Below are positions 7,656 through 59,368 of a stretch of 64,000 nucleotides of DNA, one piece after another. Both the position numbers and the translations under genes were made by a program. The notes under the pieces were generated by a model. That model saw only the letters and a program-made list of their open reading frames with translations. It did no database searches and had not been told where the DNA came from. Source of the DNA: Eledone cirrhosa. Taxonomy: Eukaryota. The stretch spans positions 160,952,001-161,016,000 of the forward strand of contig OZ024743.1 in the NCBI GenBank assembly GCA_964016885.1, in the 5' to 3' direction. Positions within the stretch are counted from its first letter, which is position 1; each line of letters starts with the position of its first letter.

Positions 7656-7666
7656 TATATATATAT

Positions 7667-8360: not shown

Positions 8361-8429
8361 TGAGCACACGTTGCAAGGAACCTCTCTTCTTGTGTCTGGT
8401 GATGTTGCTCCAGATTAATTGGTAGAGTA

Positions 8430-10314: not shown

Positions 10315-10366
<52 letters not shown>

Positions 10367-10368
<2 letters not shown>

Positions 10369-10440
10369 CGAAGGAGTTGTGGTAAGGAACCAGATGGACC
10401 ATAACGCACCAGAGTACTCAATACTGGGGTCATACATTTT

Positions 10441-15249: not shown

Positions 15250-15282
15250 CATATATATATATACATGTATATATATATATAT

Positions 15283-15668
15283 ATATTATCAAGAAAACGA
15301 AAATTCAGTGATGCATCTGGACTTAGTTTATTTCGTGTTACAAATGTTTCGCCGGCATGTAGCTCGAGTCATGGTCCTTGTATGGATCTGGCTGATTCTA
15401 CTTCTGCGGGTTCTTTCAGACACGGCTGTTATTTGCTCCGGACATAACAGCCGTGTCTGAAAGAACCCGCAGAAGTAGAATCACCCAGATCCATACAAGG
15501 ACCATGACTCGAGCTACATGCCGGCGAAACATTTGTAACACGAAATAAACTAACTCCAGATGCATCACTGATTTTTCGTTTTCTTCATAATATCTACACT
15601 CTGATGAATATCGAGTGCTAATTTTGGCATACCGCCTACGGAAGCAACATAGCTACCACTATACACTA
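15283..15668 (+). mobile_element. Fold-back PLE pseudo-LTR element (family B)
   Basis: About 150-bp inverted arms 15283-15432/15444-15593, 11-nt loop and ~75-nt one-sided tail, flanked by (TA)n. Confidence 0.8.
15452..15542 (+). ncRNA. Hammerhead ribozyme-like motif with extended stem II (mirror copy on the minus strand in the left arm)
   Basis: Stem I CGTGT/ACACG, variant core CTGAAAGA, stem II pairing GCA..GTAG/CTAC.TGC, GAAA, stem III ACA-TT-TGT, triplet GUA. Confidence 0.6.
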
Positions 15669-15734
15669 ATATATATATATATATATTGTAGTATTTGGGG
15701 AGGGTCGTATTGTTATAATATGCCCAGAAATAAT

Positions 15735-19400: not shown

Positions 19401-20110
19401 ACAATCACGGCCCACGCGAGCATTAAAATCTCCAAGAATGAAAATGTTGTCTGCTGCAGTCACTTTCCAGACAAGAGATTTTAATTCGTCATAAAAAGCC
19501 TGCTTTGCTTCATCAATGCATTCCATAGATGGTGCATAAGCACCAATCATGGTTGCATATCTTCCACCCTCTAGAGGAACTCTCACAGTGGTCAGTCTGT
19601 CACTAATGCCTGTCGGTAGCTCTTGGAGATGGTCTGTTATAACTGTTTTTATGGCAAAAGCGACACCAGCTTCCCTCCTTCCCTCCTTCCTTCCCCTCCA
19701 GAAAAACGTATATCCACCGGATTTCTCTGTGAAATGGCCCTCACCATGACGTCGAGTTTCTGAGAGGGCCACAACATCCATACATAACACCTGAGCTCCT
19801 TGGCAACCAATGCCGATCTTCTTTCAGGTTGCTGTACATTTGTTTCAATATCAAGCAAAGTACGCACATTCCAGCACCCAAAATTGAGTGGTTTGCACAC
19901 AGCAGACAGATGACGACAAGGCCCATCCTGCGGCGCCCTAGGGTACCTGCCGGGTCAGACCCTTTCACATGATGTTAGGTCACCAGTTGGTGCTACTGGT
20001 AACATGCATCCCAGTACAACCTGTACCATAGTCGGGTCGTTGGTGACTAAACTGGCAACCCCACCAAGGTTTCTTGGTGAGGGGGGTGACTTTGGAATCG
20101 TGCAGGACTA
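16480..20110 (-). mobile_element. RTE-clade LINE, near full length, decayed (APE endonuclease, RT, C2H2 fingers)
   Basis: CWNVRTLLD, VVALSETR, LGDFNARVG, WMHPGSKQWHLIDY, PESQSGFR, FVDLTKAFD, GVKQG, LLYADD, with frameshifts; the first ~130 bp are inverted. Confidence 0.93.
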
Positions 20111-25960: not shown

Positions 25961-28900
25961 CAAGTTGCTCAGGAGTGCTACTGGTAACATGTAACCCAGT
26001 ACTACATGTCTCATGGTTGGGTTGTCGGCGACTAAACCAGCAACCCCACCAAGCTTGCTTTGTGAGGAGGGTGATATTTAGACACTCTGCGGGATGAAAT
26101 AAAGACCCGGCAAAGGGCGGAGGAACTCAGCAAAGTCAACGGCCATCCAAATAGTACTTTTTTTTTTACCTGAAAGTGAAGGGCCCCCAGTTGTTGTCAC
26201 AACACATTTCTAGGAGAAGGAAACTCTGAAAAAACACCTGCGGCTTCGGAAGCATCCGATGATGTTGACCAGTTCTCCTTTTCGGGTAGTGTTTTCGATG
26301 TTCAGAGAGTGAGATCGGTCGCGTGCAAAGCCTTTCCCCACTAATAAAAAACCTTCAAATCACAGGCATCGCTTTTTCAGGATCTGTTACAGGTTCGTGT
26401 GGATGGCCGTAGCCTAAACTCTATGATGACAGAAGAGAACCTTTAAGTCAAAAGCAGTAAGGGCTCTTGAACATATTGTGAAGGGGTCTGGCCCGGCAGG
26501 TGTCAATGGCACCACAGCGTGGGCCCGGTCGTCATCCTACAACTGCAAAGAGGTTTAAACCTCTGAATATTGGATGCTGGATTTAAGAACTTTACTGGAT
26601 TCCCAGTCCAGTAAAACTCGCCCTGAAAGAAGATCTGCTTTGGTGTCGAGGGAACTCGATCGCTATAGCATGAACATCGTTGCTCTTTCAGAAACAAGAT
26701 TGGCAGGTGAGGGTCAATTCACAAAACAGAAGGGAGGATAAACCTTCAATTGTGGTGGTGGAGCAGAGGGTTGTAGGAGATAGGCAGGGATCGCATTTGC
26801 TGTCAGGAATGGAATCGTCTCAAAGCTGGAAAATCTTCCTTGTAGATTCAATGATCGGATAATGTCCATGAGAGACCCTATGATTCAAAACCGCTTTGTG
26901 ACTCTGATCAGTGTGTACGCTCCTACTATCTGTGCCAGTGATGATGAAAAACTAAGTTTCTACATGTCTTTGCGAGAGATCATCCATGGTATACCTGATG
27001 CAGACAAGATTGTCATCCTTGATGATTTTAATGCACGTGTTGGTAATGACTGGGAAGCTTGGAGTGTGATGGGCAAGCATGGAGTAGGTAAGTGCAATAA
27101 CAATGGCCTACCTCTGTTGCAGATGTGCACTGAGATGGATCTTGTTATTGGCAACACGCTCTTTCAGCAGAAAGACAAATATAAGACAACTTGGATGCAT
27201 CAAGGTTCCAAGAAGTGGCAACTTATTGACTTTGTTTTAACGACAAAACGTGATATCAGGGATATCACATTGGTTCGTGTATTGTGAGGCGCGGTATGTT
27301 GGACTGATCATCGTCTGGTGTGCGCCAAATTTCAATTTGTTGTGAAGTCCAAAGTAAGGGGGAAGAAGGTTGCACTTCCAAAACAATTAAACGTGGCTCG
27401 TCTGAAAATAGAGAAAGTCAGAGATGAGCTGTCGAAGTCCCTTGAGTTCATGGAATGTGAACACACGTGGGAATCATTGAAGAAAACCGTCTATGATGTT
27501 AGTGCTGAAGTTTTGGGTCATACCAATAGAAAGCATAAAGACTGGTTCGATGAAAATGATGCAGTGATCCAGACCTTGCTTGAAGAGAAACAAAAAGTCC
27601 TGACATCATTGTTGTGTGAGACACGTTCTGATAGGAGTGACCGGACCTTCAAGCAGATCAAGGCATGTGTGCAACATCGATTGACAGCCATATAGGATAC
27701 CAGGTGGAGCCAAAAGGCTGATGAAATCCAGAATGACTCAGATAGACATGATACAAAGCTCCAGTCTGCTGATACAAAGCTCCAGTCTGTACAAAGCTAC
27801 AGTCTGCTCAGGGAGGTGTATGATCCGACCGGTTCATAAATATCACCACTTCGCTCCCGGGACGGCACGGAATTGCTCAGAGATACGAAGGAAGTCTTGA
27901 TCAGGTGGCATGACCACTTTGATGAGCTTCTCAACCGACCATCAGATATTGATGATGAATTCATCCGGTCAATTCCATCCAGACCTACAAAGCTGGCAAT
28001 GGCTGATCCTCCTTCATTTTATGAGGTGGCGAAGGCCATTGCCAAATTAAACAGCACCAAGTCACCTTGAATGGATGGACTGAGTGCCGAGATTTTCAAG
28101 TGTGTTGGTGATAATTTCTTAAACCGCCTCACTGATCTCTTTGTGAATGTTTGGAATGAAGAAGATGTGCCACAGGATTGGAAAGATGCATTGATGGTGG
28201 TACTTTACAAAGGCGAGGGAGCCAAAGATGACTGTGGCAACTACAGAGGTATTTCACTGCTATCTGTGGCTGGGAAGATCTTGTGCAGAATATTGTTGGA
28301 CAGATTGATACAGCACATTGCTGTTGAGGTATTTCCTGATTTCCAATGTGGCTTTAGGAATGGCAGAGGCACTGTCGACATGATCTTCTCGGCCAAACAG
28401 CTTCAAGAGAAATGCATTGAGCAGCGCATGGACTTATACCAAGTTTTTGTCGATCTGACCAAAGCATTTGACACCGTTAATCGGAAGGCTTTGTGGGTTA
28501 TTTTGGAGAGATTGAGCTGTCCTGAAAAGTTTGTGAACATTCTGAAACTCTTCCACGATGACATGCAAGCATGGAGGAATGTTGGAGGTAAACTATCTGA
28601 GCCAATCTCGGTTGAAAATGGTGTCAAGCAGGGTGATATACCTGCACCAACTCACTGCCAACACTAAGGTACTGAGTACCTTGATCAGAGAATTTTTATA
28701 TGCAGATGATTGTAATCTCTTTGCACACTCCCAGAGTGACATGCAACACCTTATGGATTCTTTTTCCAAAGCGTGCAGTGCTTTGGGACTGACAATCAGT
28801 CTGAAGAAGACTGTCGTCATGTACCAGCCTGCTCCAAAGTTTTCAATGAACCCTCCATATACGGTCAAAAGCTAAAGGCTGCTGACACATTTGTGTATTT

Positions 28901-29764
28901 GGGCAGTACGCTGTGTGTGGCCTGCTATCTGGATGCAGAAGTTGGTCTACGTGTTAGTAAGGCAAGTGAGTCATTTGGAAGGATCAACGACCGTCTTTGG
29001 TGCAGGAGAGGAATCACAATGAGGACCAAGGTGAGAGTGTATGCTGCATGTGTACTGTCAGCTTTGCTGTATGCATGTGAGACATGGGTTGCCTACAAAC
29101 GACATATCCACAGACTGGAACGGTTTCACCAGCAGTGTCTCAGAAAGATGCCCGGTATCAAGTGGCAGAGCATGTGAGTGATGTTGAGGTCCTTGAGAGA
29201 AATGAGTGTCAGAGCATTGAGAGTATCATCCACCAACGGCGTTTGCGATGGACCGGACATCTCTGCAGAATGGAGGATGATCGAATCCCAAAACAACTCT
29301 TGTATGGCGAGCTTTGTGAGGGTAAGAGACCACTTCACAAGCCAAGGCTCCGATTCAAGGATTGTGTAAAGGACTAATTGAAAAAAACTGGTTTGATGGT
29401 GGCTGACTAGGAGATAGAAGCTCTTGAAAGAGAAACTTGGCGTGGAATGGTGAATGATGGGGTCCATAATTTTGAGGACAGACGCATAGAGCACGAGAAG
29501 ATCAAACGGGATGTGCGTAATGAATGCCCTGGTGTATCCCTCGAAACAATCGGTGTCTCCATTGAATTGAAGTGCCCTGAGTGTGGAAAAATTTGCTTGA
29601 GCAAATCTGGTATCAGGAGCCACAGTCGCAGCCATGTTCAAAGAGAAGCAGTGAACTATGATCTCCACGATGTTGTGAGGGTTCACGGGCAACCTGATGC
29701 ATGACCTCAAGCCAGAGAGATCCATAGTTATCGTCAGTGTGTGAAGGAGTGCAAGTCTCTAACA
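25961..29764 (+). mobile_element. RTE-clade LINE, near full length, decayed
   Basis: SVYAPT, DDFNARVG, NYRGISLLS, FVDLTKAFD, GVKQG, FLYADD, RIPKQLLYGEL, C2H2 finger CPECGKIC..HSRSH. There is an internal deletion near 28660. It starts after (TATG)n. Confidence 0.93.
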
Positions 29765-30049: not shown

Positions 30050-30073
30050 ATTATTATTATTATTATTATTATT

Positions 30074-33000
30074 GTTCTTTGAGTCTCAGTCATTGATGTT
30101 ATTTAACTGGAAAGTTTGTTGAAATGAATATCAAGCCACTACCTGCAGCCTCAGATATTCAGGACGTATCGGAGGGTTCTTGCTGTTCCCAGCGAGCATG
30201 CCTTTTGAAGTGTTCCAAAAAGCGGCGCGGGACCAATTTTCTTTAACCATCCCTGGAAACTTTTTGAGATAGTACCTAGTGCGCCTATGACAATCGGGAC
30301 CACTTTGACTTCATGGCAGTTCCAAATCCTTTTTACCTCCCACTTTAAGTCCTGGTATCGGTTAATTTTCTCCATCTCCTTTTCTTGCACTCTCGTGTCA
30401 AATGGACAGGCTACATCTAAAATCAGGCACGATCTTTTTTTCTTGTCCAAAACCACCAGGTCAGGTCTATTGTGTTCCAGTTTCTTGTCCGTCTGTATCC
30501 TAAAATCCCACAGCACCTTCACCTGATCGTTTTCTATCACCGACTCTGGCTTATGCTCATACCACTTCTCAGAATGTGGTAAATTGTTTACTTTGCATAG
30601 GTGCCAGTGGATCACCCTGCCCATCACATCATGTCCCCAGCCTTTATAGTGAGTCTGCGCTAGGTGTTTACACTCGGATACGATGTGAACCACAGTCGCC
30701 TCTCTCTCTCTCTCTCTCTCCACAGATCCTACACAGTGGGCTAGCCTCCTCCTTGTAAATATGGTGTTTCAACCACTTCGTTTTGAGGGCCTGCTCTTGC
30801 GCAGCCATTAGCATTCCTTCTGTAGCCTTTTAAAGGTCTCCTCTTTTCAACCAGTTCCATGTCTGTGAATCTCTGAATTCAGTTTTCTCAAAGAAGGTAC
30901 TATGAAGGGATTTTTCATGAAGGTTGCTCTTTCTCCTTGTTGTTATTTCCTCCTTGGACATCCCCTGGTCTATTGTCCTCTCCTTCAGTACAATTCTGAG
31001 CATTGGCTCCCTACTATCAGTCAAGTATTTGTGTAGGTTGTTTTTTACTCCATCTGAACACAGTCCTCTATGCTGATAAGACCTCTTCCACCCTCAGATC
31101 TCCTTAAGTAGAGTCTATCGACATCACTCCTCTTGTGGAACATGTTGTAGATAGTCAATAGCTTCCTAGTCTTCCTATCCATTTCATTTTGTTCAGCAAC
31201 ATTCCATCTCAGAATTCCCGCACTGTACCTAATAATAGACACAGCTCGGGAATTTACTGCATTTATGGCATTCTTACTGTTCAGATGTGATTTCAATACG
31301 GTCCTTACTCTCCGAATGTATTCAGATCTTATCAATTTCTTCATTTTTTGTTCTTGATGTCATCAGCCTCCAGAACACCTAAATATTTGTATCCTTCTTC
31401 AGTATCAGTTTCCTTTATCATCTCACCTGTTGGTCCTTGGATTCCGTTGCTTCTGCTCAATTTACCCCTCCTCACCACATGGACTCCACACTTACTAATA
31501 CCAAATTGCATACATATATCATTGCTGAAAATACGGACAGTGTCAACAAGCACATCCAACTCCTTCTCACTCTTCCTGAAGAGCTTAAGATCGTCCATGA
31601 AGATGAGGTGATTGATGGTAAGCTCTCCCTTTCCTAACTTGTATCCTGCTCTCACTTTTCGCAGTATAATGGTCAGGGGCATCAGGGCAAGGATAAAGAA
31701 CAAAGGGGACAGACTATCTCCCTGGAAGATACCTCTCTTGATCTTCACGCCTCCCAAGGATTCTCCACCTGATGTTAACTCTGTTTTCCAGGACTTCATA
31801 CTTTTGCTCAACAACTGTCTGATGTTATCTGCCACCTTGAAGATCTCTAGGCTTTTGGTGATCCAAGAATGAGTTACCATGTCAAATCCCTTTTTGTAGT
31901 CTATCCATCCCATGGCAAGACCAGTGTGTCTCATCTTGCAATTCTTCATTACCATCTTATCAATAAGTAACTAGTCCTTTGTACCACGGGACTTCTTTCG
32001 GCATCCTTTCTGTTCGTCCGGTAACAAATTGTTTATGTGGAGGTGATGGTAGATTTCCACAGACACAATGCGTGTCAACAGTTTCCACATTACGGACAGA
32101 CGTGTGATAGGTCTATAGTTGGTAACATCATTAACCTTGATTCGGTGTTTCATTACCAGAAATGTGGTACCCTTTGTCAACCACTCTGGTACCTCGCCTG
32201 AGATCAAGCAGTCATTTAACATGCTTGTCAGTTTCGGGTTGAGGGATGTTATATTTTTAATCCAATACCCCTGCACACCATCTGGGCCTGGTGATTTCCA
32301 GTTGGTTAGTTTTCTGGCCTGCCCCTTAAGAGTTTCAACTGTGATACTCAAATCAGTTTGTTGGTGTTCCTGTTCACTAATCTCCTTTTGTACTGTCTCA
32401 ATACACACTGTCTGGTCATTATGTTCAACATCCTGCTCCCATATTCCTCTCCAGAATGTCTTAGTTTGTTCCGCCTCAGGGATCAAGTCGTTGCCTCTTT
32501 CTTTCCCTTCAAGCTGTCCAAACAATATCTTCTGGTTGTTGTCAAACATGCGGTTATGTCTATACTGACTGACTCTGCTCTCGTATCGCCTAATTTTTGC
32601 ACTCTATGCTATAATGCGTTGCTTCAGTTCCTCTATGATAATATTTAGCTTTTTCCTCCTAGTTTTGTACAGTATTTCCAGTCTATTTTAGTGTCTGTTT
32701 TTTAGTGTCCCATTCAGTAGGGACTCAAGCTTTCCAGTGTCAATTCTCATTTCCCTGATTTGACCATTCAGTCGTTTCTTCCACCAAGGTTCTGATCGTT
32801 CTTCTTTGTTGTTTCCTCTCGCTTTTGTGTCAAGTAATTTCCTCACCGCATTTGCTGTTGCTTTGAGGATATTGATGCACTGGTGAAGGCTCCTTGCCTC
32901 AAGGTATGGGATGACTTCGTTTAACTTAGCTGTTGTTTCTTTTAACTTGTTCCTGTCTACAAATCTTAGGTTCATAGGTTTCCCACTATCATTGTTCATT

Positions 33001-34670
33001 TCATCTACCACTAAGTTTAGGATATTACCAAATCTTGTTCTAGCTCGTCAGCATTCATTTCCTCAATGGCCGTATCTTTGTTGCAGGTATTATTTATTTC
33101 AGCATTCAGATCATTGTCTGCTTCGGATGGTTCCTCCGTTCTCTCAACCTCTTCACCTTCATTTCTCACTGGCTCGTTTGCCTGGCATACTCCACTCTCC
33201 ATTTCCAACCTAATCTCTCTGCTCAGTTCCTCCAGTTCCAGCTTGCTTATCCACCCATTATTTCTTATTACTCGAGCCTGCCCGGCCAATTTTTGTTCAT
33301 CTAATTTAAATAGACCAATCTCGTTCCAGATGTTATGCATCCGTTTCCTATAGCCTTTTTCCTTGGGGTTACTCTTCAGGTAACATTGCATAACAGTTCT
33401 AATCAATTATTTCGTCCAGTTGGTTCTGGTTCCTTTCCTTCTTCTTCCTCCAACACCAGCAGTATTTGGATGTCAGCCAAGTCCCTGCTGCTGAGCCAGG
33501 GAGCACCTGCTGGGTGAGAGTCTGTCACATGACATTACAGTCTCCACTTCACCGTTATTCGAACTGTTTAGGTTCCTCATTTAAACACTCATATCGAGGA
33601 TTGGTGAATGTATGGTTACATAACTACCGGTGATTTCATCACCCCGGTGATTTTAGCGTGGCACCATCACGCTGTAGATGAACATAAATAAACAAAGAAA
33701 TAGATAAAAACCTTAAAAAAACAAAAATAAACATGTTTTATTGTAATGTTTGAATGTCTGACTTAGTTTTTTTTTTTTTTTTTTTCCTTAGCGTTTTTCG
33801 TTTTACAAGGCCAGTAACATCGGTTACTAGTGTTGTTGTTGCTGCTGCTGCTAAGGGAAGTAGGGGTTGATGTGTTCAAAACTTTTGTAATTTGTGTTTT
33901 TATTGTTGCGTTTGCTTCTGTCTGTGTTCTGTTCTATAATTTTTCGACTATAATTTTTTCTATAATTTTTTTCCTTTCACCCCTACGGGGCCGACACTAC
34001 AAAGCACCTGCAACACACCGGGACAATTGCTGGCCCCGTGCCAAAAGCAGAAGCAATTATTATTATTATATTATAGTTTAGATTTGACATCGTTTAAAAT
34101 AAACATTTTGAGAGAGTTTAGAGATACAACATAATTATTTTGGTGTTGTTGTTGTTGTTGTTGTTAGCTGTTTGACCGAGTCACTAAGCCAGTCTATTTA
34201 TATCTTTTGATACCTTCCTCGCTTCTTTTCATGTGTAGCGGCACCACCACCCCTCTCTTAAGTAGTGAGGGAATACTGGCGGTAGCGATGATGCAGTGGT
34301 GGCGGTGGTGATGTGGCAGCAGTACTATAGGGATGGTGCTGGTTTATATTTGGCTAGATTTTTGTGGTAGTGGTGATGGTGATGGTGGCGGCGGCGGTGG
34401 TGGTGGTGCTGGTGGTGAAGTTATTTGGCTGTTGTTTTCTAGCCATTTTCTTTTCTGACTATAAATTTTCTGGTACAAAATTAAATATTAAATATTGGAG
34501 CCCTATGCCATAACGTGATGCGTTGCCACTTCCTGAGAGTTAAGACTGATATCTTACGTTCCATTTGTAATAAGAATTATTCTATCACAATTGTTTTAAA
34601 TATGTAAAAAATCAAACACTTACGGGAGCGATTCCATAATACAGTATCCACGATGTGCGTATCTTCCCTT
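30074..34670 (-). mobile_element. Full-length R4/Dong-like LINE copy 1 (RT + CCHC + RLE), multiple stops and frameshifts
   Basis: Colinear paralog of 34960-39489. WKSPGPDG, GIFQGDSLSPL, FMDDLK, NRPDLV, DVACPFD. Probable ATG near 33580. Both ends lie in (TAA)n. Confidence 0.93.
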
Positions 34671-34915: not shown

Positions 34916-34952
<37 letters not shown>

Positions 34953-34959
34953 GTTGTTA

Positions 34960-37900
34960 TTCCTTGAATCTCAGTCATTGATGTTGGTTAACTGGAAAGT
35001 CCGTTGGATTGAATATCAAGCCACTACCTGCAGCCTCAGATATTCAGGACGTATCGGAGGGTTCTTGCTGTTCCAAGCAAGCATGCCTTTTGAAGCGTTC
35101 CAAAAAGCGTGAAGGGGCCGATTTTCTTTAACCATCCCTGGAAACTTTTGGAGATAGTCCCCAGTGCGCCTATGACAATCGGGATCACTTTGACTTCATG
35201 GCAGTTCCAAATCCTTTTCACCTCCCACTTTAGGTCCTGGTATCGGTTAATTTTCTCCCTCTCCTTCTCTTGCACTCTCGTGTCGAACGGGCAGGCCACA
35301 TCCACAATCAGACACGATCTTTTTTCTTTGTCCACAACCACCAGGTCAGGTCTATTGTGTTCCAGTTTTTTGTCCGTCTGTATCCTAAAATCCCACAGCA
35401 CCTTCACCTGATTGTTCTCTATCACCGCCTCTGGCCTATGCTCATACCATTTCTCAGAATGTGGTAAATTGTTTACTTTGCACAGGTGCCAGTGGATCAC
35501 CCTGCCCATCACATCGTGTCTCCAGCCCTTATAGTGGGTCTGGGCTAGGTGTTTACACTCGGACACAATGTGAGCCACAGTCTCCTCTCTCTCTCCACAG
35601 ATCCTGCACAGTGGGCTAGCCTCCTCCTTGTAAATATGGTGCTTCAACCACTTCGTTTTGAGGGCCTGCTCCTGCGCAGCCATTAGCATTCCTTCTGTAG
35701 CCTTTTTGAGGTCCCCTCTTCTCAACCAGTTCCATGTCTGTGGATCTCTAAATTCAGTTTTCTCAAAGAAGGTACTATGAAGGGATTTTCCCTTAAGGCT
35801 GCTCTTCCTCCTTGATGTTATTTCCTCCTTGGACATCCCCTGGCCTACTGTCCCCTCCTTCAGTACAGTTCTGAGCATTGGCTCCTTACTATAGGTCACG
35901 TATTTGTATAGGTTGTTTTTCTCCATCTGAACACAGTCCTCTATGCTGATAAGACCTCTTCCACCCTCAGATCTCCTTAGGTAGAGTATATCGACATCAC
36001 TCCTCTTGTGGAACATGTTGTAGATAGCCAATAGCTTCCTAGTCTTCCTATCCATTTCTTTTTGTTCAGCAACATTCCATCTCAGAATTCCCGCACTGTA
36101 CCTAATAATAGACACAGCTCGGGAATTTACTGCGCTTATGGCATTTCTGCTGTTCAGATGTGACTTCAATACGCTCCTTACTCTCCGAATGTATTCAGTT
36201 CTTAACAATTCCTTCATTTTTTTGTTCTTTATGCCATCAGCCTCCAGAACGCCCAAATACTTGTATCCTTCCTCAGAGTCAATTTCCTTTATCATCTCAC
36301 CTGTTGGTATCTGGATCCCGTTACTTCTGCTCAACCTACCCCTCCTCATCACAATGACTCCACATTTACCAATACCAAACTGCATACATATATCACTGCT
36401 GAAAATACGGACAGTGTCAACAAGCACATCCAACTCCTTCTCACTTTTCCCGAAGAGCTTAAGATCGTCCATGAAGAGGAGGTGATTGATGGTAAGCTCT
36501 CCCCTTCCCAACTTGTATCCTGCTCTCACTTTTCGCAGCATAATGGTCAAGGGCATCAGGGCAAGGACAAACAACAGAGGGGATAGGCTATCTCCCTGGA
36601 AGATACCTCTCTTGATCTTCACGCTTCCCAAGGATACTCCAGTTGATGTCAACTCTGTCTCCCAGGACCCCATACTCCTGCCTAGCAACTGTCTGATGTT
36701 ATCTGCCACCCTGAAGATCTCCAGGCTTTTGGTGATCCAAGAATGAGGCACCATGTCAAATGCCTTTCTGTAGTCTATCCATCCCATGGCAAGATCAGTG
36801 TGTCTCCTCCTGCAATTCCCCATTACCATCTTATCAATAAGTAACTGGTCCTTTGTACCACGTGACTTCTTTCGGCATCCTTTCTGTTCGTCCGGTAACA
36901 AGTTGTTTGTGTGGAGGTGATGGTAGATTTCCTCAGACACAATGCTCGTCAACAGTTTCCACATTACGGACAGACATGTGATAGGTCTATAATTGGTAAC
37001 ATCATTACCCTTGATTCGGTCTTTCATTATCAGAACTGTGGTACCTTTTGTCAACCACTCTGGCACCTCACCCGACACCAAGCAGTCATTGAACATGGCC
37101 GTCAGCTTCGGGTGGAGGGATGTTAAATGTTTAATCCAATACCCCTGCACACCATCTGGGCCTGGTGATTTCCAGTTGGTTAGTTTTTTGGCCTGCCCCT
37201 TAAGAGTTTCAACTGTGATACTCAAATCAGTTTGTTGTTGTGCCTGCTCACCGATCTCCCTCTGTACTGTCTCAATCCACCCTGCCTGGACATTATGTCT
37301 AACATCCTGCTCCCATATTCCTCTCCAGAATGTTTTAGTTTGCCCCGCCCCAGGGATCAAGTCGTTGCCTCTTTCTTTCCCCTCAAGCTGTCCAAACAGC
37401 ATCTTCTGGTTGTTGTCGAACATGCGGTTCTGTTTATACTGACTGACTCTGTTCTCGTATCGCCTGATTTTTGCACTCTTTGCTACAATGCGTTGCTTCA
37501 GTTCCTCTATGATAATATTTAGCTTTTTCCTCCTAGTTTTGTATTTTATTTCCAGTCTATTTTTAGTGCCTATGTTTTTTAGTGTCCCATTCAGTAGTGA
37601 CTCAAGCTTTCCTATGTCATTTCTCATTTCCCCGATTTGCCCACTCAGTCGCTTCTTCCACCACGGCTCTGCTCTTTCTTGTCTGTTGTTTCCTCTCGCT
37701 TTTATACCAAGTAGTTTCCTCACCGTATTTGCTGTTGCTTTGAGGATATTGTTGCACTGGTGAAGGCTCCTCGCCTCAAGGTATGGGATGACTTTGTTTA
37801 CCTTAGCTGTTGTTTCTTTTAACTTTTTCCTGTCTACAAATCTTAGGTTCATAGGTCTCCCACTATCATTGTTCAATTCATCTACCACTAAATTTAGGAT

Positions 37901-39487
37901 GTCAACCGAATCTTGTCCTAGCCCGTCAGCATTCATCTCCTCAGTGGCCGTATCTCTGTTCCAGGTATTATTTATCTCAGTATTCAGATCATTGTCTGCT
38001 TCGGGTGGTTCCTCCGTTCTCTGGACCTCTTCACCTTCATTTCCCACTGGCTCGCTTGTCTGGCATACTACACCCGCCATCTCCAAGCCGTTCTATCTGC
38101 TGAGTTCCTCCAGTTCCAGCTCGCTTATCCACCCAATAGTTCTTATTACCCGAGCCTGCCCGGCCAATTTTTGTTCATCTAATTTAAATAAACCAATCTC
38201 GTTCCAGATGTTATGCATCCGTCTCCTGTAGCCCCTCTCCTTGGGGTTACTTTTCAGGTAACATTGCATAACAGTTCTATTCAATTCTTTCGTCCAGTTG
38301 GTTCTGGCCCCTTTCCTTCTTCTCCTTCCTCCAACATCAGCAGTATTTGGTTGACAGTCAGGTTCCTGCTGCTGAGCCAGGGGGCACCTGTTGGGTGAGA
38401 GTCTGTCACATGACGTTCTAGTCTCCATTTCACCGTTATTCGAACTGTTTATGTTCGATATTTAAACACTCTTATCGAGGATTGGCGAATGTATGGTTAC
38501 ATAGCCATCTGTGGATCCGCCATTCCACTTGGCCCTTGTGTGGCATTATCACCACGCTGTATACGAACACACATAAACAAACAAACACACAGGCAGAAAG
38601 GGCCCCAAAAATGAATAAGCATAAGTTTCATTGTAATGTAGTGTTCGAATGTCTGACTTAGTTTTTGTTTTTTAAGTTTTAGTTTTTCCCCCCTCTTCTC
38701 TGTCCGTCCGCCTGCTTCTCTCTTCATTCTTATTTTCTTTACGTTTTTTTTTTTGGGGGGGGGGGGGGGGGTTTGGTTTTGTTTTGGTTTTTCTCTATTT
38801 GTTTTTCTCGTTTTTTGCTGTTGTTGCTGTGCTGCTTTGGTTTTGTTGTTTGTTTTTTCTTTTTTCTTTTGAGTCTATCTATATATTTTGATGCCTTCCT
38901 CTTTTTTAGCAGTAGGGATTCTATAATGTGGTGGCAGCAGCCAGCTGAAAGAAGAGGAGAGACTGGCGGCGGTAGCGATACTGAGACAGTGGTGGTGGTG
39001 ATGTCGATACCGAGGCAGTGGTGGCGGTGATGTGACCGTATTGCTGTAGTGATGGTGCTGTAGCGGTGGTAGCAGTGAAGGAGTGAAGGGGTGGTGGCGG
39101 CGGTGATGGGATAATGGTGGTAATGATGGCCGTAGTGAGCGGTGGTGGTGAAAATGCCGTTATCTGGCTGTTGTGTTTAGTGTACATCTGGTGTTGGTGA
39201 GTTTGGCTGTTCTATATAGTGTAGACAGAGGAGAGGGGGGGGGGTCTTCTTCCATTTATAGCCATTTTCTTTTTTGGATATACAGTGTACAATACAAAGT
39301 TGAATATTTGAATATTTGAGCCTTATAACAATATATTTTGGGTCCGAATTTTTTGGGGCTCAAGCCGGGTGCTTTACGTAGCATTTGTACTAAGAGTTGT
39401 TATTTCACAAATGATTTAAATATGTTAAAAATTCAAAACTTACGGGAGCGATTTCATGACCTCCGCCACCTCGTGCGTCTTCTTCCC

Positions 39488-39759: not shown

Positions 39760-41698
39760 ATGGCCGACCCACAGCTGAACCCAGTAGCTGAGAGCCTTCC
39801 TCACAAACTAACACCTCACACTGACACCACCATTGTAAATATTACTAGGTTTGCCAACACTAAAAATATAAGCAGTAGCAATATTTTAAATTTGTCTCAG
39901 GCAGACATTCATTTCCCGCCATTACCAATGACTGCAGGTGTTGAAGCCGCCACCCCACCACCACCACAGCGACAACAGAAACAAAAGAAAAAATAAATTA
40001 TCTCGTGATATCGAAATGAATTCAGCCAAAATGAACTCTTCCACACCGAACACGACTGACGCCACCACCACCACAACTGAAACTAAAATTAACAATAACA
40101 AAAATAACGATAACAACAAGAGCAACAATGACAATAAGAAGACCCTGTCTTTTGCCAGAGTAGCAAAAAAGTGCGAAACATTCCAGGTAACTCAGGAGGA
40201 ATTAGAAGAAGCCAAAAAAATGGTAAAGAAAGACGGGTACAGAGTCTCCCCCCCCCCTCGTCCCCCCCTCACCCCCACCTAATAAAATGGAGCATCGGCG
40301 CCTATGCACCGTGTCTTATCGGACGATTAATATAAAATCGCGCCGAGTGGAACGGGCATCCGAGACCCAAATCCAAAAAGCTTTGGGACATGTGTGGGCA
40401 ACAAAAACCCACATCAGACGTGGGCAGAAATATGGAACAGTAGACGTGTTCTTTGAAACATCACATCAGGCTAGAGAACACTCCATGGCCCCATTAAGAG
40501 GTGACGACTTCACACTCGTCCCAAGCTATTGTGGCCAAAGACTCGTGAAGATCAGGGTGACCCACGTTCCACTGGCCATCGAAATTCCCTGGCTAATGGC
40601 TGCCGTCCTCGCCGGCATCGAAGCCAACACCAAGATAATCGAAATAGCGAAAGAAAAGCAGGAGAACTGGTCCGGATCTGGGATGGAGCTCCTGATCCAA
40701 GCGGACCAAAAAAGCATTGAGGATATCCCAGAGGTAATAGACCTCACTGACGGTAGCCACCTCACGGTAATTGTCGAGGGTAAAAGGCCTAGGTGAGTCG
40801 TTTGTGGTGAAGGAACCCACCTAAGGGCTTTCTGCCCTCAGGCTAAAAGGTTGAGGTCACCTCTCTTACCCACCCCAGTGACTCAACCATCAACACCACC
40901 AGCAGCAGAAGTGGCAGCAACAACTGCATCAGCAACAACAGAAGCAACTGTAACAGTAACAACCCCAGCAACAGTAGCAAAACCAACACCACCACCACCC
41001 AACGCGCCAGAACTAGCACCAGCGCCTACACCATCCACCACGCCACAACCAAAACCAACGCCTGTGGAGGATTTTCCACTTCCCGACCTATCGCAATTGG
41101 AGACAGATTGTGACGACAGGAGTGGGAAACGGTATCAGAAAAAAAGAAAAACAAACCAAAGAAGAAAAATTCCCCTTCCTTCCCACTCCAAAAACATAAT
41201 ACAGAGGGAAACAAATAAACTATCAAAGAAAAAGGTTAGGACAGCTATGCCACCATCCACACCAGCATCACCAACAACCATCACCACAAACACCAACACC
41301 ATCACCATCATTAACCCCAACACCACCATCACCAACACCACAAAAGTCACCAAAAAGCGAAACAGAAACAAACCCACAACAAACGCAAACAAAACAAAAC
41401 AACCAAAACGATACAGACTACACAGCAATAAAGTTGAACAACAACCAATTATTACATCCAACACAACATGAGCACCACAGAAAAAGACTACACAACAAGC
41501 CAAAAGTTCACACTACCTCCACACATACAAATCAATCGCATGACACATAAACGTACACGACACTATAACAAAAATTCCCCCAAAACATCGGAGACTTCCG
41601 ACAAGCACTCTCCAGGAGGATTTATAAGGACATCCTTCCGGAAGAGGCCAGAAGCAGTGAAAAGGATGGAGAAACCATACTTCCTCTACGAGAAGTAA
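39760..41698 (+). pseudogene. Tx1 ORF1 (gag-like nucleic-acid-binding protein), fragmented
   Basis: LSFARVAK motif, RRM-like stretch, broken zinc knuckle R*VVCGEGTHLRAFCP at ~40791-40838, Pro/Thr-rich tail. Confidence 0.75.
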
Positions 41699-41737
41699 GG
41701 TAAGTGGTCTTTCCCATCTTTTCCACTCCATTTCAAC

Positions 41738-44700
41738 ATGACCTCACTCAGAATAGGCAGCTTAAATGCACGTGGCTTGGGGTCGTCATGGAAGCAAGGC
41801 CACCTGCTCAACGACCTCAGGTCACTACAAATAGATGTAGTAGCCATCAGCGAGACCAGAATCTCCGAAGCACGGGTCTTCGCACCGATCTTCGGCGATT
41901 ACGATGTGTACGCATCTCCCACCCGTCCTGGATCGGGGGGAGGAGTTGCTGTGTTTTTCGGAGAGGTTTGGATCTCGCCATACGGGCCATCTTCCTGGAC
42001 CCAGAGGGTAAGTTGGTGGTGCTGGACGTGACCAGCGGAGACGGGAAAGCTTTCAGGCTAGTGGCCGTCTATGGCCCGACAGGAGCAGGGCGGCCTGATT
42101 TCTTCCGGCGTCTGGAGACCTTTCTTTAGTGTTAGTGGGCGACTGGAACGGGATCTTAGATGCACGCTGGGATTGTGTGGGATTAGCGGATAGGGGAGGA
42201 GGGTGCAAGAGCCTTACCAACCTGCTCAGGCGTTTTGAACTGTCTGACAGGTACCGATTGGATTTCCCGAACCTGCCAGTGTGGACTTGGACAAATATCA
42301 TCGGGTCATCCAGATAGAGTATTTTGTAGGTAAATAGATAGGTCTAGCATAGGCTATCCACAATTCAAGATAGTCAGCTACACGGACCACAAATTCGTGA
42401 TCTGTGTGCTTGACTTAGATAGGCTTCATAGACGAGGACCCCGCTACTGGAAGCTAAACGCGTGCTTACCAGCGCGCAAGGCCTACAGAGACCGGATTAG
42501 CGAACTAGTTAAGCCGACGTTGACGGGGGCCATCGTCAACAACAAGTGGTGGTTTGCTCAGAAAAGAGCGATTAGAATAGAGTCCATTAGGTTTAGTAAG
42601 GCTTTAGCAATAGAGAAAAATAGAGCAGAGGGAGAACTAGTTAGAAAATTAGACGAGGCGCTCAGCAAAGGTATCGCGAACGACGTACATGCGGCGAAAT
42701 TGGCCCTTGACCAATTCTTCAATACAAAGCACGAAGGCTACGTTGTCAGAGCTAGGGTGCGTGCTCTCAGACACGAGGGGACGAAAGCCGTTCAATGGGC
42801 CCGAGTGGCGGAGGCGCGTCGTGGCAACAAAGCCACGATCCGGTCTTTGGTGGACCACGACGGGCGCATGCTACACGATCCCGGGCAAATGTGTGAAGCT
42901 TTTCAGCGACACTTCGCGCAACTGCTCGGGGGCAGCGGCGAGCCGGATCGAGGGATGGACTTTAGTGTCTACCTCGACGGACTGCCGCAGCTCTCGGCCA
43001 CTGAGACGGAGTGTTACTAAAAGCCGATAACAGCCGCTGAAGTACGGGAGGCAATGACTGGCTGCACAAGGGATAAATCGCCTGGTTTGGATGGTCTGCC
43101 CTATGAACTTTACGTACAAATGCCAGACTTGTTCGGGGGCCTCTTGGCGATGTCTACTGCAACTGGCAACAGAATGGGAGAATTCCCAGCTCTGTGAGCC
43201 GAGGAGCTGTGGCGCTGCTGAGAAAGGATCCGAACAAGGGGGATAACATAGATAATTTTAGGCCGATAACTCTGCTAAACACAGAGTTCAAGATTTTGGC
43301 CAAGGTGTTAGCAAAGAGGTTGACGCTTGTCGTTGGTGGTCTGGTGGGAGAGGCACAGACATGCGCCATTCCCGACAGATCCATACACAACAACCTCCAC
43401 CTCATGCGATACATCGTAGAGAGGGTAGCTAGGGAACCTGGCACAGGTGGGTCCTTGATCAATTTAGATCAGTCGAAAGCTTTCGATAGGGTCGACCATC
43501 GTTACCTAGCGGCAGTACTGAGGGCGGCTGGCTTTGGGCCCGTCTTCAGAGGCTGGATCGCTGCCATGCACAGCGACATCTGCTCTGTGGTGAGAGTGAA
43601 CGGTCACCTTTCGCAACCGTTCAACATCATACGCTTGGTCCGCCAAAGATGTCCTCCTCTCGTCCCTCTTGTACGTATTGACTCTCGAGCCATTACTGCA
43701 CAAACTGGAGACGTTGAGGGGGGAGGGGGGGCGGTCCCGCGCAAACTAGGATGCGGAAGATCCGTGTCAGCATATGCGGACGATGTCACTGTACTTATGT
43801 CGAACGCCAAACACATCGAGGCGATCGGCACTACACTAAAAGAATACGAAGCGGTGACAGGAGCAATGATCAACCAGTAAAAGTCAGTGGGCCTGCAGCT
43901 CCGCACCTGGAGAGGCAGGTCCATGCCGTCCAACAGCGTCGTCGGGCGCTGGACGGACGGACCGGTTAAATTGCTTGGGATCTGGTTCGGTCCGGATCTC
44001 CAGACGGACAAAAACTGGGACGAGGTGATGATCAGGGTGGCTTCTCTCACCCTGAAAGGTCGAGCGGAGGTGGCTAACGCGTACATCTCGTCCGTCATCT
44101 ACTACCGCCTGACCGTCGTACCTTGTCCTAAGCCCCGCCTGACTGCGCTGGAGCGTTTGCTCTTTCGCTTTTTGTGGAAGGGACGCGCTCCGATGGCTAG
44201 GCGGTCCATCTGCTGTCAACACCCGCTACGTGGAGGGCTGGGATGCGCAGACACGCGCTCAGGCTACGACATCTCCACCTCTTCCTCGACGGTGATCGGG
44301 TGTGGTCGCCGTTTGCTAGACTCTTCTTTCCCAGCTCGTCTCCTTGACGGAGCTGCAGTCCTGGGTCAAGCGAAGACCGAGAGGGAGCGCTTGGAGACTG
44401 GAATGTCTTCAGGCGCTCACAGCCCTCGACCAATCGGGCAATGTGATCGGTGGAAACTCCACCTTTGCGTTCTATAGAGGATTAATGGAGGAGAAGAGCG
44501 ACGACGTACTTGGGGAAACTCTAGGCGTCGACGAAAATCAACTAGCCAAAATCTTCGGATGAACTTTCGGGCCGGGGCCTATGGACAATTTCCAGAAATC
44601 CCTGGCCTGGCAGTGCTACCAAGGAGCTTTGCCAGTTCGGGATAAACTCTACAGGCATGGAGGTGCCGTCAGCCGGGAATGTCCGAGATGCGCGCAGGGC

Positions 44701-45096
44701 GACGAAACCGTCCTGCACGCACTCGTCCAGTGTCCGAGCATTGCTGACTTGTGGGTTTATGTCGAACACCTGCTGTCGCGTGTAGGACGGATCCAGCTAT
44801 CAGCTGAGTCCATCGTGAGGATTGCCCCGCCCTCTTCCTTTAGCCGGGAAGGACAGGCAGTTTTTATCTGTCTGGTGGCCATGGCGAAAGAGATAGTATG
44901 GTGGACACGTTTGAAAGGGCTGAAGACGAGCACTTACCTTTTCGGTGATGCCCTGATTAACTTTTTCAAATTTCATTTGAAAAGGAAAATCAGGGTAGAA
45001 AGGGAAATGCTCTCTTCCCAGCATTTTGTTGAAAGATGGGTGAGAGACGCAAGAATGGCCCGAGAGAATGGGCCTACTCTGAGTATGTGTTTGTAA
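41738..45096 (+). pseudogene. Tx1 ORF2 (APE endonuclease, RT, C-terminal Cys/His domain), frameshifted
   Basis: IGSLNARGL, AISETR, VGDWN, YTDHK, YWKLN, KSPGLDGLPYE, FRPITLLN, LDQSKAFDRVDH, AYADDV, CPRC..ETVLHALVQCP. Confidence 0.92.
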
Positions 45097-46463: not shown

Positions 46464-46520
46464 TATAAAGAATTAATATATCTAGTAACATGTATATATA
46501 TGTTACTAGATATATTAATT

Positions 46521-46527
<7 letters not shown>
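46464..46527. repeat. 28-bp perfect inverted repeat ending a repeat block at a (TA)n tract
   Basis: TATAAAGAATTAATATATCTAGTAACAT / ATGTTACTAGATATATTAATTCTTTATA. Confidence 0.85.
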
Positions 46528-46590
<63 letters not shown>

Positions 46591-46595
<5 letters not shown>

Positions 46596-46765
46596 AACCA
46601 ATAAGACCCCGACGGCTGAGCTCAAGCTAATTCTGAATTAGCCGTCGAAACTGCTTGAGCTCAGCCGTCGGGGTCTTACTGGTTCCTATTACCCACTCTA
46701 CTACCTTAAGTATTGAGTACTTTGGTGCGTTATGGTCCACCTGGTTCCTTACCACATTTCCTTCG

Positions 46766-46768
<3 letters not shown>
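46591..46768 (+). mobile_element. Fold-back PLE pseudo-LTR element (family A)
   Basis: Arms 46591-46627/46653-46689 plus tail to 46768, (TA)n on both sides, homologous to 7667-7874. Confidence 0.8.
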
Positions 46769-46833
<65 letters not shown>

Positions 46834-53930: not shown

Positions 53931-53994
<64 letters not shown>

Positions 53995-54000
<6 letters not shown>

Positions 54001-54337
54001 TAAGATCAAAAGATGGTTAAAAGAGTTCCTTGTATTTTATTATGCGCATTTCAAAAACAAATATCATCATGCAATAACATTTGCGTTTTCGTCAGATAAA
54101 ATAGGGAGACATGATATGAAGGTTAAAACACACTTGTGAATAGTGCAGTTTTAAATCAACATATCATATATGTTGATTTAAAACTGCACTATTCACAAGT
54201 GTGTTTTAACCTTCATATCATGTCTCCCTATTTTATCTGACGAAAACGCAAATGTTATTGCATGATGATATTTGTTTTTGAAATGCGCATAATAAAATAC
54301 AAAGAACTCTTTTAACCATCTTTTGATCTTATATATT
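53995..54337. mobile_element. Fold-back PLE pseudo-LTR pair (family C)
   Basis: 170-bp inverted arms 53995-54164/54168-54337 with one visible mismatch and a 3-nt loop, starting in (TA)n. Confidence 0.9.
54229..54299 (+). ncRNA. Type I minimal hammerhead ribozyme (mirror copy at ~54033-54103 on the minus strand)
   Basis: 8-bp stem I TATTTTAT/ATAAAATA, core CTGACGA, long stem II GCAAATGTTATT/GATGATATTTGT, GAAA, palindromic stem III ATGCGCAT, triplet AUA. Confidence 0.88.
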
Positions 54338-55115
54338 ATTTATACTCCAATGAAGCTCGTGCTCGGAGTGGATTTTTCGATAAGGTAGCATATACAGAGT
54401 ATGAGAATAGACCTAGGAAAAATAGATCCCGACGCATTATATCGTATAACCCACCATATAATATGGAGGTAACCACACCATTAGCTAAGATCTTTCTCTC
54501 TCTTATTATGAAGCATTTCCCCCCAGCACATAAATATAATAACATTTTTAATAGAAATACTATTAAAATATTTCTTACTCTACGACTCCTAACCTTGCAC
54601 ATAACATTACAGCTTCAAATTTAGCTAAATTACCTAGCCGTAGGAACATGTGCAGCCCTGTAGCTAGTACTAACTGTAATTGTAGGAATCGGGTTGACTG
54701 CCCCCTATCCGGGAAATGCCTCTTTAGTAACATTGTCTACAAATGTAAGGTTGAAACACCCACGTCCCGTAGGGCCTACATGGGGTTAACCGTCAATAGA
54801 TTCAAGCAGCGTCTTTACATGCATACCCATTCTTTTCTTAACCCTTTAAGAAGGAATATGACGTCACTTTCAGCTTATATCTGGAGTCTAAAAGACAACC
54901 ACACCCAATATAAGTTACACTGGGAGATCCTAGCTAAAGCTAGATTGTATAACGGAAATAAAATACCATGTGACCTCTGCACCGCTGAAGCCCTGGAAAT
55001 ACTCTCCGCCAAAGACCACATCTTAAATAAACAATCTGAGGCAATTTCGGCTTGTAAACATAAACTACACAAAACTTTCCTGTATTACAGCCCCACATTA
55101 TACCCTAACGGATAG
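54338..55115 (+). pseudogene. Penelope-like linker plus GIY-YIG endonuclease (one frameshift ~54572; 155-aa open part 54648-55115)
   Basis: RRIISYNPPY, KHFPPAHKYNNIFNRNTIK, CNCR..CPLSGKCL, NIVYKC, AYMGLT, FKQR, TSLSAYIWSLK, CDLCTAE, CKHK. Confidence 0.9.
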
Positions 55116-56029
55116 TACGAACTATACGTGGATATTTTACGTCTTGATGTGGTAGCTAAGTATATGTTATGTTTATACCATTACTTATTTGTATAGGTAA
55201 GTATATTTTACCTGTATGTTTTGTGAAGGTACGTATACTTTCTCGTACGTATATTTGCTTGTATATGTTATAGGCGTATATATCATATTATATATACTGG
55301 TACATGTGCATATGGTTATGTGTATACGTGAGTTTTGCGTCTGTGTGAGTATGCGGATTCGTCCGTATGAAGGCTGTGTGTATATGTGTACTTTGTGTTT
55401 TGGTTGACGTGCGTTTAGCGAACATATGTGTATTTACATGTAGGTATGTGTGTGCGCGCGTTATATACGTATTTATGTGTGTATATTTATATACGTTTAT
55501 ATAATTATATGTATACACGCACACACACACACACACACACATATATTTATATATATTTTTTTATATTTATTTTTATGTGTATTTCGTGTATACGTTCCTA
55601 TGTGTACGGGTACAGGCGTCGCGTGGGTTCTGTATGTGCGTGCGTGTTTTTTGTGTACGTGCTTGTATTTGCATACACATGGCGGGTGTTTTCGCGTATG
55701 CATGTGTATGTACGTATATGGATGCGTGCATGTATATATTTAATTTTTGTTGATTTCAATTACCTCTGTAATTTATTTACATTATTCTTAACTCTGAAGC
55801 CGAGAATCATTCGGTTCGCTAAATAGAATTTTATTCTACGACTTCAGTTATACCATAAACCTGGTTTTGTCTTTGGTAATTGTTCTCACCGCTCCACATA
55901 ATGACGTATTATCTTCATTGTTTCCGTTCATTGCCAGGGAACGTCTCCACGAACCAAAGTATCGTCTTCATGTCTTCATTCGGTTGCAACGTTTGAAATA
56001 TTTACTTCTGCGTTCACAGATTGAGTTTT

Positions 56030-56093
56030 TTAATTTCAGAAGATCCCGTTAAGGGTGAAAGCAGCGATTCTTTGCTTAAACTTTAATCTGTTA

Positions 56094-56100
<7 letters not shown>
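56030..56100 (+). repeat. PLE pseudo-LTR end (family D) with mutated hammerhead core
   Basis: CAGAAGATCCCGTTAAGGGTGAAAGCA...TGCTTAAAC matches 59213-59276 and ends at (TA)n. Confidence 0.6.
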
Positions 56101-56160
<60 letters not shown>

Positions 56161-57579: not shown

Positions 57580-57830
57580 GTTGGCTGTGTCAGAATCAAT
57601 CTCTAGGCTATCATGGTGTCTGCTCAGCCTGGGTTGGTCCCTATGGCTTGAGGGGAGTTCCCAACCTATGGTGTTGTTACTGCCCATATAGCTTGAGGGA
57701 TGTCTGGCCGAGAGGTGTCTACATGTTCTGGAGAAGTCCCTATAGATTGAGGGGAGTTCACATCTTATTGTGTTGCTACTGTCCATATATCTTGAGCAAG
57801 GTCCCGGCCCTGAGATGTCTGCATGTCCCG
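57580..57830. repeat. Diverged ~100-bp tandem duplication at the end of the PLE endonuclease frame
   Basis: GTCCCTAT.G.TTGAGGGGAGTTC.CA.CT..T.GTGTTG.TACTG.CCATATA.CTTGAG at ~57638-57697 and ~57737-57796. Confidence 0.7.
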
Positions 57831-58135
57831 AAGAAGTCGGTTCTGAGGTTTATCAGGCCGCTTCCACCTCTTAGTATCTCGAGGGTCTCGTTCAGACATA
57901 GTTTGCATATGCAAGATCCCCCTTTATCGGGTGGTACTTTCCTGATTATGGACCAGGCCAGAGAGTATGGGGTCCTGTCCAGCTTAAGCTTCCAGATCAG
58001 GTCGGAGAGAGCCGTACTTTTCCTTTTGGCCTCTTTATTGAAGGAATGGCGATGGTTATACCAGCGCTCTTTAAAGCTCGTTGATGTGGCTCCTATGTAG
58101 AAGTGTTCGGAGTTGGGGGTTTTAACCCTACAACC
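57777..58135 (-). pseudogene. 5'-truncated Penelope-like GIY-YIG endonuclease, with A-rich (plus-strand) 3' UTR extending to ~56740
   Basis: CRVKT..HFYIGATSTSFKERWYNHRHSF...STALSDLIWKLK...CKLCLNE...CRH; starts at (TA)n. Confidence 0.88.
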
Positions 58136-58136
58136 G

Positions 58137-58192
<56 letters not shown>

Positions 58193-59170: not shown

Positions 59171-59177
<7 letters not shown>

Positions 59178-59368
59178 TAACAGATTAAAGTTTAAGCAAA
59201 GAATCGCTGCTTCTGAAGATCCCGTTAAGGGTGAAAGCAGAGATTTTTTGCTTAAACTTTAATCTGTTATTTTAATAAATATTTGCTCTACGGTTCTTAT
59301 ATATTTGATATATATTTATCCTTATTGAGCCCTCTTTGGATTTTAGTCTTCAAATTTATTATTATTAC
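59171..59368 (+). mobile_element. Fold-back PLE pseudo-LTR element (family D) with hammerhead core in the loop
   Basis: About 42-bp arms 59171-59212/59235-59276 enclose CTGAAGA-TCCCGTTAAGGGT-GAAA; one-sided tail; (TA)n flanks. Confidence 0.75.

Follow-up and report, generated by a model that had tools for sequence, protein, structure and literature searches.

A decayed Hydra-type PLE fragment abutting a fold-back repeat with hammerhead cores: probable debris of PLE insertion

Described relatives and the comparison with the locus

Penelope-like elements (PLEs) of the Hydra clade, which are of the C-terminal EN+ type, are characterized, in passages of Craig et al. 2021 (PMC8557442), by the motifs CxCx5C, CxxC and CxH, the lack of CCHH, (TA)n targets and canonical hammerheads, and one Hydra element in the supplement of that paper has an inverted copy attached. 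As typical PLE features the authors name frequent 5' truncation, partial tandem arrangement, a 5' inverted copy and an optional tail. Palindromic inverted pLTRs, microhomology junctions and the insertion of one PLE into another are described in parts of Arkhipova et al. 2013 (PMC3846280), along with many PLE copies disabled by microhomology deletions. PLE reverse transcription begins at the 3' end, according to a section of Frangieh et al. 2024 (PMC11167929).

We analyzed a locus at 53995-55115 of a 64,000-nt stretch of Eledone cirrhosa DNA (the window), in which a fold-back repeat is joined to a GIY-YIG endonuclease (EN). Like members of the Hydra clade (Hydra-1_Obim, Penelope-13_HM), it has CxCx5C, no CCHH, and CxxC and CxH flanking the catalytic E and N, together with (TA)n targets and 5'-truncated and inverted copies. 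For the canonical hammerhead that the clade has near the 3' end, the locus offers two candidates, one upstream and one downstream of the coding part. RT-bearing relatives have DKT and RWR/K, as in that clade. Since the linker, the EN motifs and the (TA)n target are those of the Hydra clade of Craig et al. 2021, we placed the coding part there. The linker reads differently by eye from that of Hydra-1_Obim, and, unlike published Hydra elements, the locus is truncated and frameshifted and has a longer candidate 3' UTR.

The head-to-head arrangement of an inverted and a direct pLTR, the optional tail, microhomology junctions, internal deletions, PLE-into-PLE insertion and AT-rich targets are shared with Adineta vaga Pen2/Pen2a and Anolis PAc, as these are presented in passages of PMC3846280 and PMC11167929, respectively. 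In contrast to them, the locus has 5 nt of tail and no 3' copy of the same pLTR. Non-LTR retrozymes, as outlined in part of a preprint (bioRxiv 10.64898/2026.07.22.740005), likewise have a type I hammerhead like that of PLE pLTRs, but they form non-coding tandem arrays, arranged head to tail, in which two ribozymes share a strand, whereas here the hammerhead copies lie on opposite strands, the repeat is inverted and coding debris follows. The stand-alone GIY-YIG ORFs of Terminons (passages of PMC6431247 and PMC8557442) resemble the locus in having an unfused endonuclease near hammerhead-bearing PLE sequence; theirs, however, are separate ORFs with CCHH in giant telomeric elements, whereas ours is the broken tail of a fused RT-EN ORF with thumb sequence kept. 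A literature search by titles and abstract openings, mostly outside subscription papers, returned no endonuclease-only or RT-less PLE family.

The fold-back repeat and its hammerhead cores

The fold-back lies 2 nt from a (TA)n microsatellite at 53950-53993, the upstream insertion target. Its arms (53988-54164 and 54168-54344) are 177 nt long, 98% complementary and separated by a 3-nt loop. The core arms (53995-54337) show one mismatch in 171 aligned positions, 54303 versus 54029, so that the near-perfect fold-back of the preliminary description was borne out. Repeat search and alignment identified the minus-strand segment 53995-54164 as a PLE 3' end in inverted orientation (inverted pLTR), and repeat search and read depth identified the plus-strand segment 54168-54344 as a direct, high-copy version of the same end (pLTR). 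The latter is followed by 5 nt (54345-54349, plus strand) that open the optional tail of the arm family, as judged from the loose ends of family copies. The inverted arm stops in (TA)n, an end point also used by other arm-family copies, whose loose ends lie behind 54344. Repeat search and blastn found no direct copy of the arm elsewhere in the window; likewise, blastn found no arm sequence 3' of the EN fragment, where local alignment scored no better than 100 shuffles. The window is rich in (TA)n and (CA)n, with 30 (TA)6+ runs, and a target-site duplication is unreadable within (TA)n.

A type I hammerhead core (HHR1) is present in each arm; it consists of a stem I of 8 bp, CUGACGA (at 54237 in the direct arm), a long stem II, GAAA and a short stem III whose loop is palindromic. 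In the direct arm (54229-54299, plus strand), a pattern scan placed stem I at 54229-36/54292-99, the core at 54237-43, stem II at 54244-79 and GAAA at 54280-83, with a predicted cut after 54291. In the inverted arm (54033-54103, minus strand), scan and folding gave a predicted cut after 54041. A strict hammerhead scan of both strands of the 64 kb, run without a shuffle control, returned solely HHR1 and its mirror, and the exact hammerhead pattern had 0 matches in metagenome contigs. The hammerhead had been called intact. This holds for the presence of a core motif in each arm, but Rfam detected no hammerhead at the locus at gathering or E-value thresholds (its matches being to miRNA-like hairpins and microsatellites), folding z-scores of -1.3 and -1.5 indicate an energy that is not unusual, and stem III is absent from the predicted minimum-energy fold. 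In the predicted fold of a two-arm RNA the HHR1 core is fully base-paired, and the ribozymes would be masked in any RNA with both arms. Minimal PLE hammerheads reportedly may cleave as dimers.

Six more fold-backs were observed in the window, five of them touching (TA)n. A long one at 15280-15670 sits between (TA)n runs; it has 5 mismatches over 151 positions and a tail of about 75 nt, and gave no hammerhead in strict or relaxed scans. The repeats at 7655-7903, 10315-10425 and 46464-46819 form a small family with fold-backs at 7745-7874 and 46591-46689 that touch (TA)n, as does a separate 64-nt fold-back at 46464-46527; these repeats are likely further PLE ends. Hammerhead-core-like motifs found with a loose pattern at 6192 (minus), 7171 (plus) and 7308 (minus) failed stem checks, and two of them face each other across 7171-7308. 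Elements of other kinds are also present. Tandem copies of a 3.7-kb non-LTR retrotransposon, 90% alike, occupy 30050-33778 and 34935-38673 (minus), and the second has an open 1,018-codon RT frame (35036-38092). Non-LTR elements in a decayed state, with pieces of AP endonuclease and RT, lie at 16571-19954, 26784-29177 and 41700-45096, the last preceded by a gag-like frame at about 40200-41470. Between 96-nt inverted repeats (6292-7054) lies a transposase remnant (6405-6893, minus) that we take from its motifs to be Mariner-like.

The coding part and its decay

Alignments of relatives and tblastn identified the plus-strand segment 54348-54569 as the end of an RT thumb plus linker of a Hydra-clade PLE, truncated on its N-terminal side. 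The segment 54570-55115 (plus strand) comprises the CxCx5C linker and the GIY-YIG EN, as indicated by motifs, a structure model and a fold match. A PLE linker and EN had been described as directly following the repeat with no RT in between. We confirmed the order, and tblastn with eight RT-bearing relatives revealed no RT sequence near the locus; the SG..Y motif, however, belongs to the RT thumb, so that a sliver of RT remains. Homology begins at residue 454 of 713 of the relative P0049, with about 450 codons missing, and at residue 498 of 622 of P0164. The latter is the closest RT-bearing relative, with 55% identity to the linker, and spans the frameshift point in one frame. The linker and EN frames match consecutive stretches of RT-EN proteins. 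The DKT and RWK-type motifs of RT are absent at the locus and present in six of eight long relatives and in P0164; family reads reach into the thumb without yielding the family's own RT. The coding part corresponds to the C-terminal third of an RT-EN protein of a Hydra-clade PLE and begins in the RT thumb.

The EN keeps IVY..YMG, R, E and N, and CxxC and CxH are present (C135xxC138, E141, N154, C163xH165). Its frame also contains the linker motif C37-x-C39-x5-C45, and CxCx5C is carried by 104 of 150 hits. No CCHH pattern was seen by eye in the EN alignment. The structure model (pLDDT 89.7) matched I-TevI in a wide structural search (Z 9.3, rmsd 2.4, 89 aligned), with further fold matches to T4 EndoII (Z 7.7) and UvrC (Z 6.3). 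The EN itself had no significant match in Pfam, a PDB sequence search or Foldseek; the Pfam GIY-YIG model recognizes 9 of 72 aligned relatives and not this EN. Using phmmer, we found 5,219 relatives at E up to 0.001, and a close (above 60%) full-length protein of the EN family was not found. Of 91 candidates, the EN query matched one (L001), over 18 residues; it was dropped because eight full-length relatives did not match it.

We compared 54168-55300 with four public runs from three studies (X1 and X2 represent one sample), in which 8,198, 6,908 and 66 contigs (X1, X2 and X4) and 16,713 reads (X14) matched. Organisms sharing only a small fraction of words with the locus were left out, and no RNA dataset was among those listed, which has no bearing on expression. 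Instead of the single endonuclease frame first described, two frames are present, thumb/linker at 54316-54624 and EN at 54567-55115. They are broken by a frameshift near 54570 (54568-54571, plus strand), where, from the frames, the family contigs and P0164, the locus exceeds many family copies by 2 nt. The shorter, in-frame form was seen in 30, 31 and 1 contigs (X1, X2 and X4) and in 121 reads (X14), and accounts for about 39% (X1) and about 58% (X2) of depth, shares that do not establish its universality in the family. In the IWxNPP motif, the conserved Trp is Ser at the locus, a near-fixed difference from the family. The sole in-frame ATG before the EN, at 54648, opens a 155-codon frame, but position 54649 is C in 99.4% of depth in X1 and X2, indicating that this ATG is private to the locus copy. 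The EN has no usable start codon; its only in-frame ATG is missing from 99% of family depth.

Synonymous changes were counted in the 35 coding differences among 40 selected from 229, with five UTR differences left out. Near-fixed differences, where more than 97% of family depth differs from the locus, number at least 18 (6 synonymous and 12 non-synonymous) and are indistinguishable from neutral (P 0.17-0.38). The remaining 17 (9 synonymous, 8 non-synonymous), from the same 40 of 229, are synonymous-rich (P 0.004-0.024), as expected of an active family. In the EN part, the near-fixed differences from family reads fall in 759 nt and give a divergence of at least 2.4%, a figure drawn from the 40 of 229 and one that would be inflated, like any "private" difference, if the runs come from another individual or species. 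The changes at the locus fit neutral decay, and the locus encodes no enzyme. An intact EN frame under purifying selection, as expected of the family proposed earlier, is contradicted by the frameshift, the private ATG and the 6:12 ratio of near-fixed changes. The suggestion of a young insertion applies at most to the arms and fails for the EN part, given its near-fixed differences.

Two further Hydra-like remnants were observed in the window. At 57776-58160 (minus), an EN-only, 5'-truncated remnant with a Pfam GIY-YIG match (E 2e-4) directly abuts (TA)n; beyond it come a tandem duplication of 99 nt and T-rich sequence that reaches the next (TA)n after about 1 kb. At 8434-9600 (minus), decayed RT, thumb and linker of a sister family, 37-39% identical to P0164, are accompanied by short inverted duplications of the remnant's own 5' part (8278-8454).

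The downstream end, the junction and the origin of the locus

A T-rich, TG/TA-rich stretch follows the EN (55116-56004, plus strand); it is family 3' UTR at least to 55300 and presumably beyond. It leads to HHR2 (56005-56100, plus strand), a hammerhead-like fold unrelated to HHR1, and to a (TA)n microsatellite (56100-56158) at the candidate 3' end. HHR2 was recognized by a looser pattern, a repeat pair and a fold with the core held open. It has a 13-bp stem I and one core letter off consensus at 56038, ends on the (TA)n run and showed no similarity when compared with the arm. Strict and relaxed scans missed it because its core is one letter off, and a sister copy at 59211 is without stem I. 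The two copies differ at 3 of 66 positions, in line with the age of the EN. HHR2 has T.T as its first stem II pair, a pair shared by 14 of 25 Hydra hammerheads in File S2 of Craig 2021, versus 0 of 25 with the A.T pair of HHR1, a comparison that weakly favors HHR2 as the Hydra-type end. The HHR2 end may thus be the true 3' end of the EN fragment. It lies about 920 nt from the EN stop, versus roughly 150-240 nt in two published Hydra consensi read by eye. The 57776 remnant has about 1 kb to its own (TA)n, and a spacer of 0.9-1.5 kb precedes the 3' pLTR of rotifer Pen1 in a passage of PMC3846280. Family homology continues for at least 185 nt beyond the stop, and no arm sequence appears within it.

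A fold-back (59172-59282) with a direct HHR2-type copy and an 80-nt tail was also observed between (TA)n runs (59172-59360). Its hammerhead core is intact, and the direct copy begins 2 nt before the core. In its inverted arm, 42 nt are identical to 56059-56100, yet the same stretch shows 2 differences in 42 from its own direct arm.

Arm and coding part are both high-copy repeats, abundant in the same runs. In X1, summed depth is 0.89-1.83 million in the arm bins 54168-54319, 58-249 thousand in the linker and 217-468 thousand in the EN, falling at the junction from 713 thousand in bin 54320-54357 to 107 thousand in bin 54358-54395. Loose ends were counted from 24 of 776 entries. Among them, arm copies pass into (TA)n behind 54344 in at least 56, 52 and 2 contigs (X1, X2 and X4) and at least 264 reads (X14), and into a constant tail behind 54349 in at least 28, 25 and 4 contigs and at least 1,276 reads (from 54334). 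EN copies pass into constant upstream sequence before 54348 in at least 16, 10 and 2 contigs, and in the linker frame this sequence matches by eye the part of the P0164 thumb helix that immediately precedes residue 498. Since EN copies run upstream into the thumb, the family has RT-side sequence, and the locus copy was cut in the thumb at a microhomology, namely the 2 nt (54348-54349) by which arm and coding part overlap. The parts come apart at the junction in three studies. None of the 24 pieces listed among 15,359 spans the join, a number too small to prove the junction unique. The locus is probably not a repeated unit. Many EN-region contigs have differing internal skips of 39-278 nt, indicating that internal deletions are common in the family. 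The family tail might represent the start of the Hydra ORF: it contains an ATG (ATT at the locus), but this ATG is not in the linker frame and no likeness to Hydra N-termini was seen.

We regard the locus as very probably ordinary PLE debris, whether a composite or a truncation or deletion within one family, and on balance we favor the view that two PLE insertions at a single (TA)n run produced a one-off composite that is now dead. An older Hydra-clade element would have been copied by TPRT from its 3' end, possibly the HHR2 end at 56100, and synthesis would have stopped in the RT thumb, leaving a 5'-truncated copy of thumb end, linker, EN and 3' UTR. This copy would then have acquired the observed frameshift, Trp-to-Ser change and mostly non-synonymous changes. 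A younger PLE, probably of another family, would later have inserted between the (TA)n run and the old copy. Its cDNA may have started 5 nt into the tail, primed via the 2-nt match at 54348-54349, extended over 180 nt across the hammerhead-bearing end and produced the inverted arm by folding back. Both the order of events and the assignment of a hammerhead end to the EN are inferred. Two insertions are favored by the separation of the parts at the junction, which also supports the one-off deletion or chimera considered in the preliminary description. Moreover, since PLE reverse transcription starts at the 3' end, the EN fragment should precede its family's hammerhead-bearing end; the arm is absent 3' of the EN, and a different hammerhead-like end and (TA)n lie downstream. 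The arms are too alike for the age of the EN (1 difference in 171 versus about 8 expected from EN divergence, P about 0.003), which the HHR2 copies fit. The 30 (TA)6+ runs, the five fold-backs touching (TA)n and the EN-only remnant at 57776-58160 also count for the composite. Counted against it are the lack of a read or contig linking EN and HHR2, in a comparison spanning only 54168-55300, the stop-to-HHR2 distance, long for Hydra, and the lack of a (TA)n remnant between arm and EN part. So are the rise in depth from linker to EN to arm, as in a single 5'-truncated family, the possible origin of the runs in another individual or species, and possible arm homogenization. Arms can become homogenized after insertion, and a literature search on homogenization of palindrome arms gave no match.

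A single insertion of one family, equally dead and ordinary, is a real if tentative possibility. The order inverted pLTR, pLTR, tail start and body would be original, with about 1.4 kb of RT lost by a template jump in reverse transcription or by a later microhomology-mediated deletion beside the palindrome. Such a layout agrees with passages of PMC8557442 (the Fig. 2 legend of Craig 2021 and the Penelope-13_HM entry), and part of Arkhipova 2013 (PMC3846280) describes inverted pLTRs combined, in one copy, with an internal deletion mediated by microhomology. The 2-nt microhomology, the partial tail, the depth gradient and the abundance of both parts in the same runs fit as well. This history needs three added events, however: separate loss of the 3' pLTR, arrival of HHR2 as an unrelated neighbor and homogenization of the arms; and the EN family sequence continues at least 185 nt beyond the stop without the arm. 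We consider it improbable that the locus represents an RT-less, EN-bearing non-autonomous family, or cis-acting pLTRs with a captured EN fragment, mobilized in trans by a PLE RT. The kept catalytic residues and the 155-codon frame from the ATG at 54648 would suit it, passages of PMC3846280 indicate that pLTRs alone can carry unrelated DNA in trans, and the 24 of 15,359 pieces listed are too few to prove a unique junction. Against it stand the private ATG and the frameshift at 54570, the neutral-like near-fixed changes beside synonymous-rich family polymorphisms, the X1 depth drop with loose ends departing on both sides of the junction, and the lack, by blastn, of a second pLTR matching the arm to close the unit. 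The endonuclease-only, ribozyme-processed family proposed at the outset is not supported either: reads leave the junction on both sides, the frame is broken and the ATG is private.

A sequencing or assembly artefact, in which a chimeric fold-back read produced the fold-back or the junction, is very unlikely. The arms are nearly identical, none of the 24 pieces listed of 15,359 spans apex or junction, and the best run contains only 0.49 of the sampled words; but the arms are distinguished by one internal mismatch and by their ends, both of which coincide with end points of other copies, and six other fold-backs in the window show 1.6-16% arm mismatch (with only 16 nt aligned in the 59172 comparison). 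Equally improbable as an RT-less family is a cross-family template switch that joined one PLE's hammerhead end to another's RNA, with the unit recopied to few loci. If true, it would mean that PLE families cross-mobilize one another and would offer a way for stand-alone GIY-YIG ORFs to arise; a multi-copy junction would be evidence of such cross-family mobilization. Cross-mobilization between EN+ and EN- PLEs was sought and not found in a rotifer, according to a passage of Arkhipova 2013 (PMC3846280).

The locus is a single decayed member of an abundant Hydra-clade family that is apparently uncatalogued, and its layout has been described for PLEs before. As by-products, the position of the junction 5 nt into the tail could inform where PLE reverse transcription can start, and the family copies provide evidence for at least one further high-copy Hydra family under purifying selection in this animal lineage.
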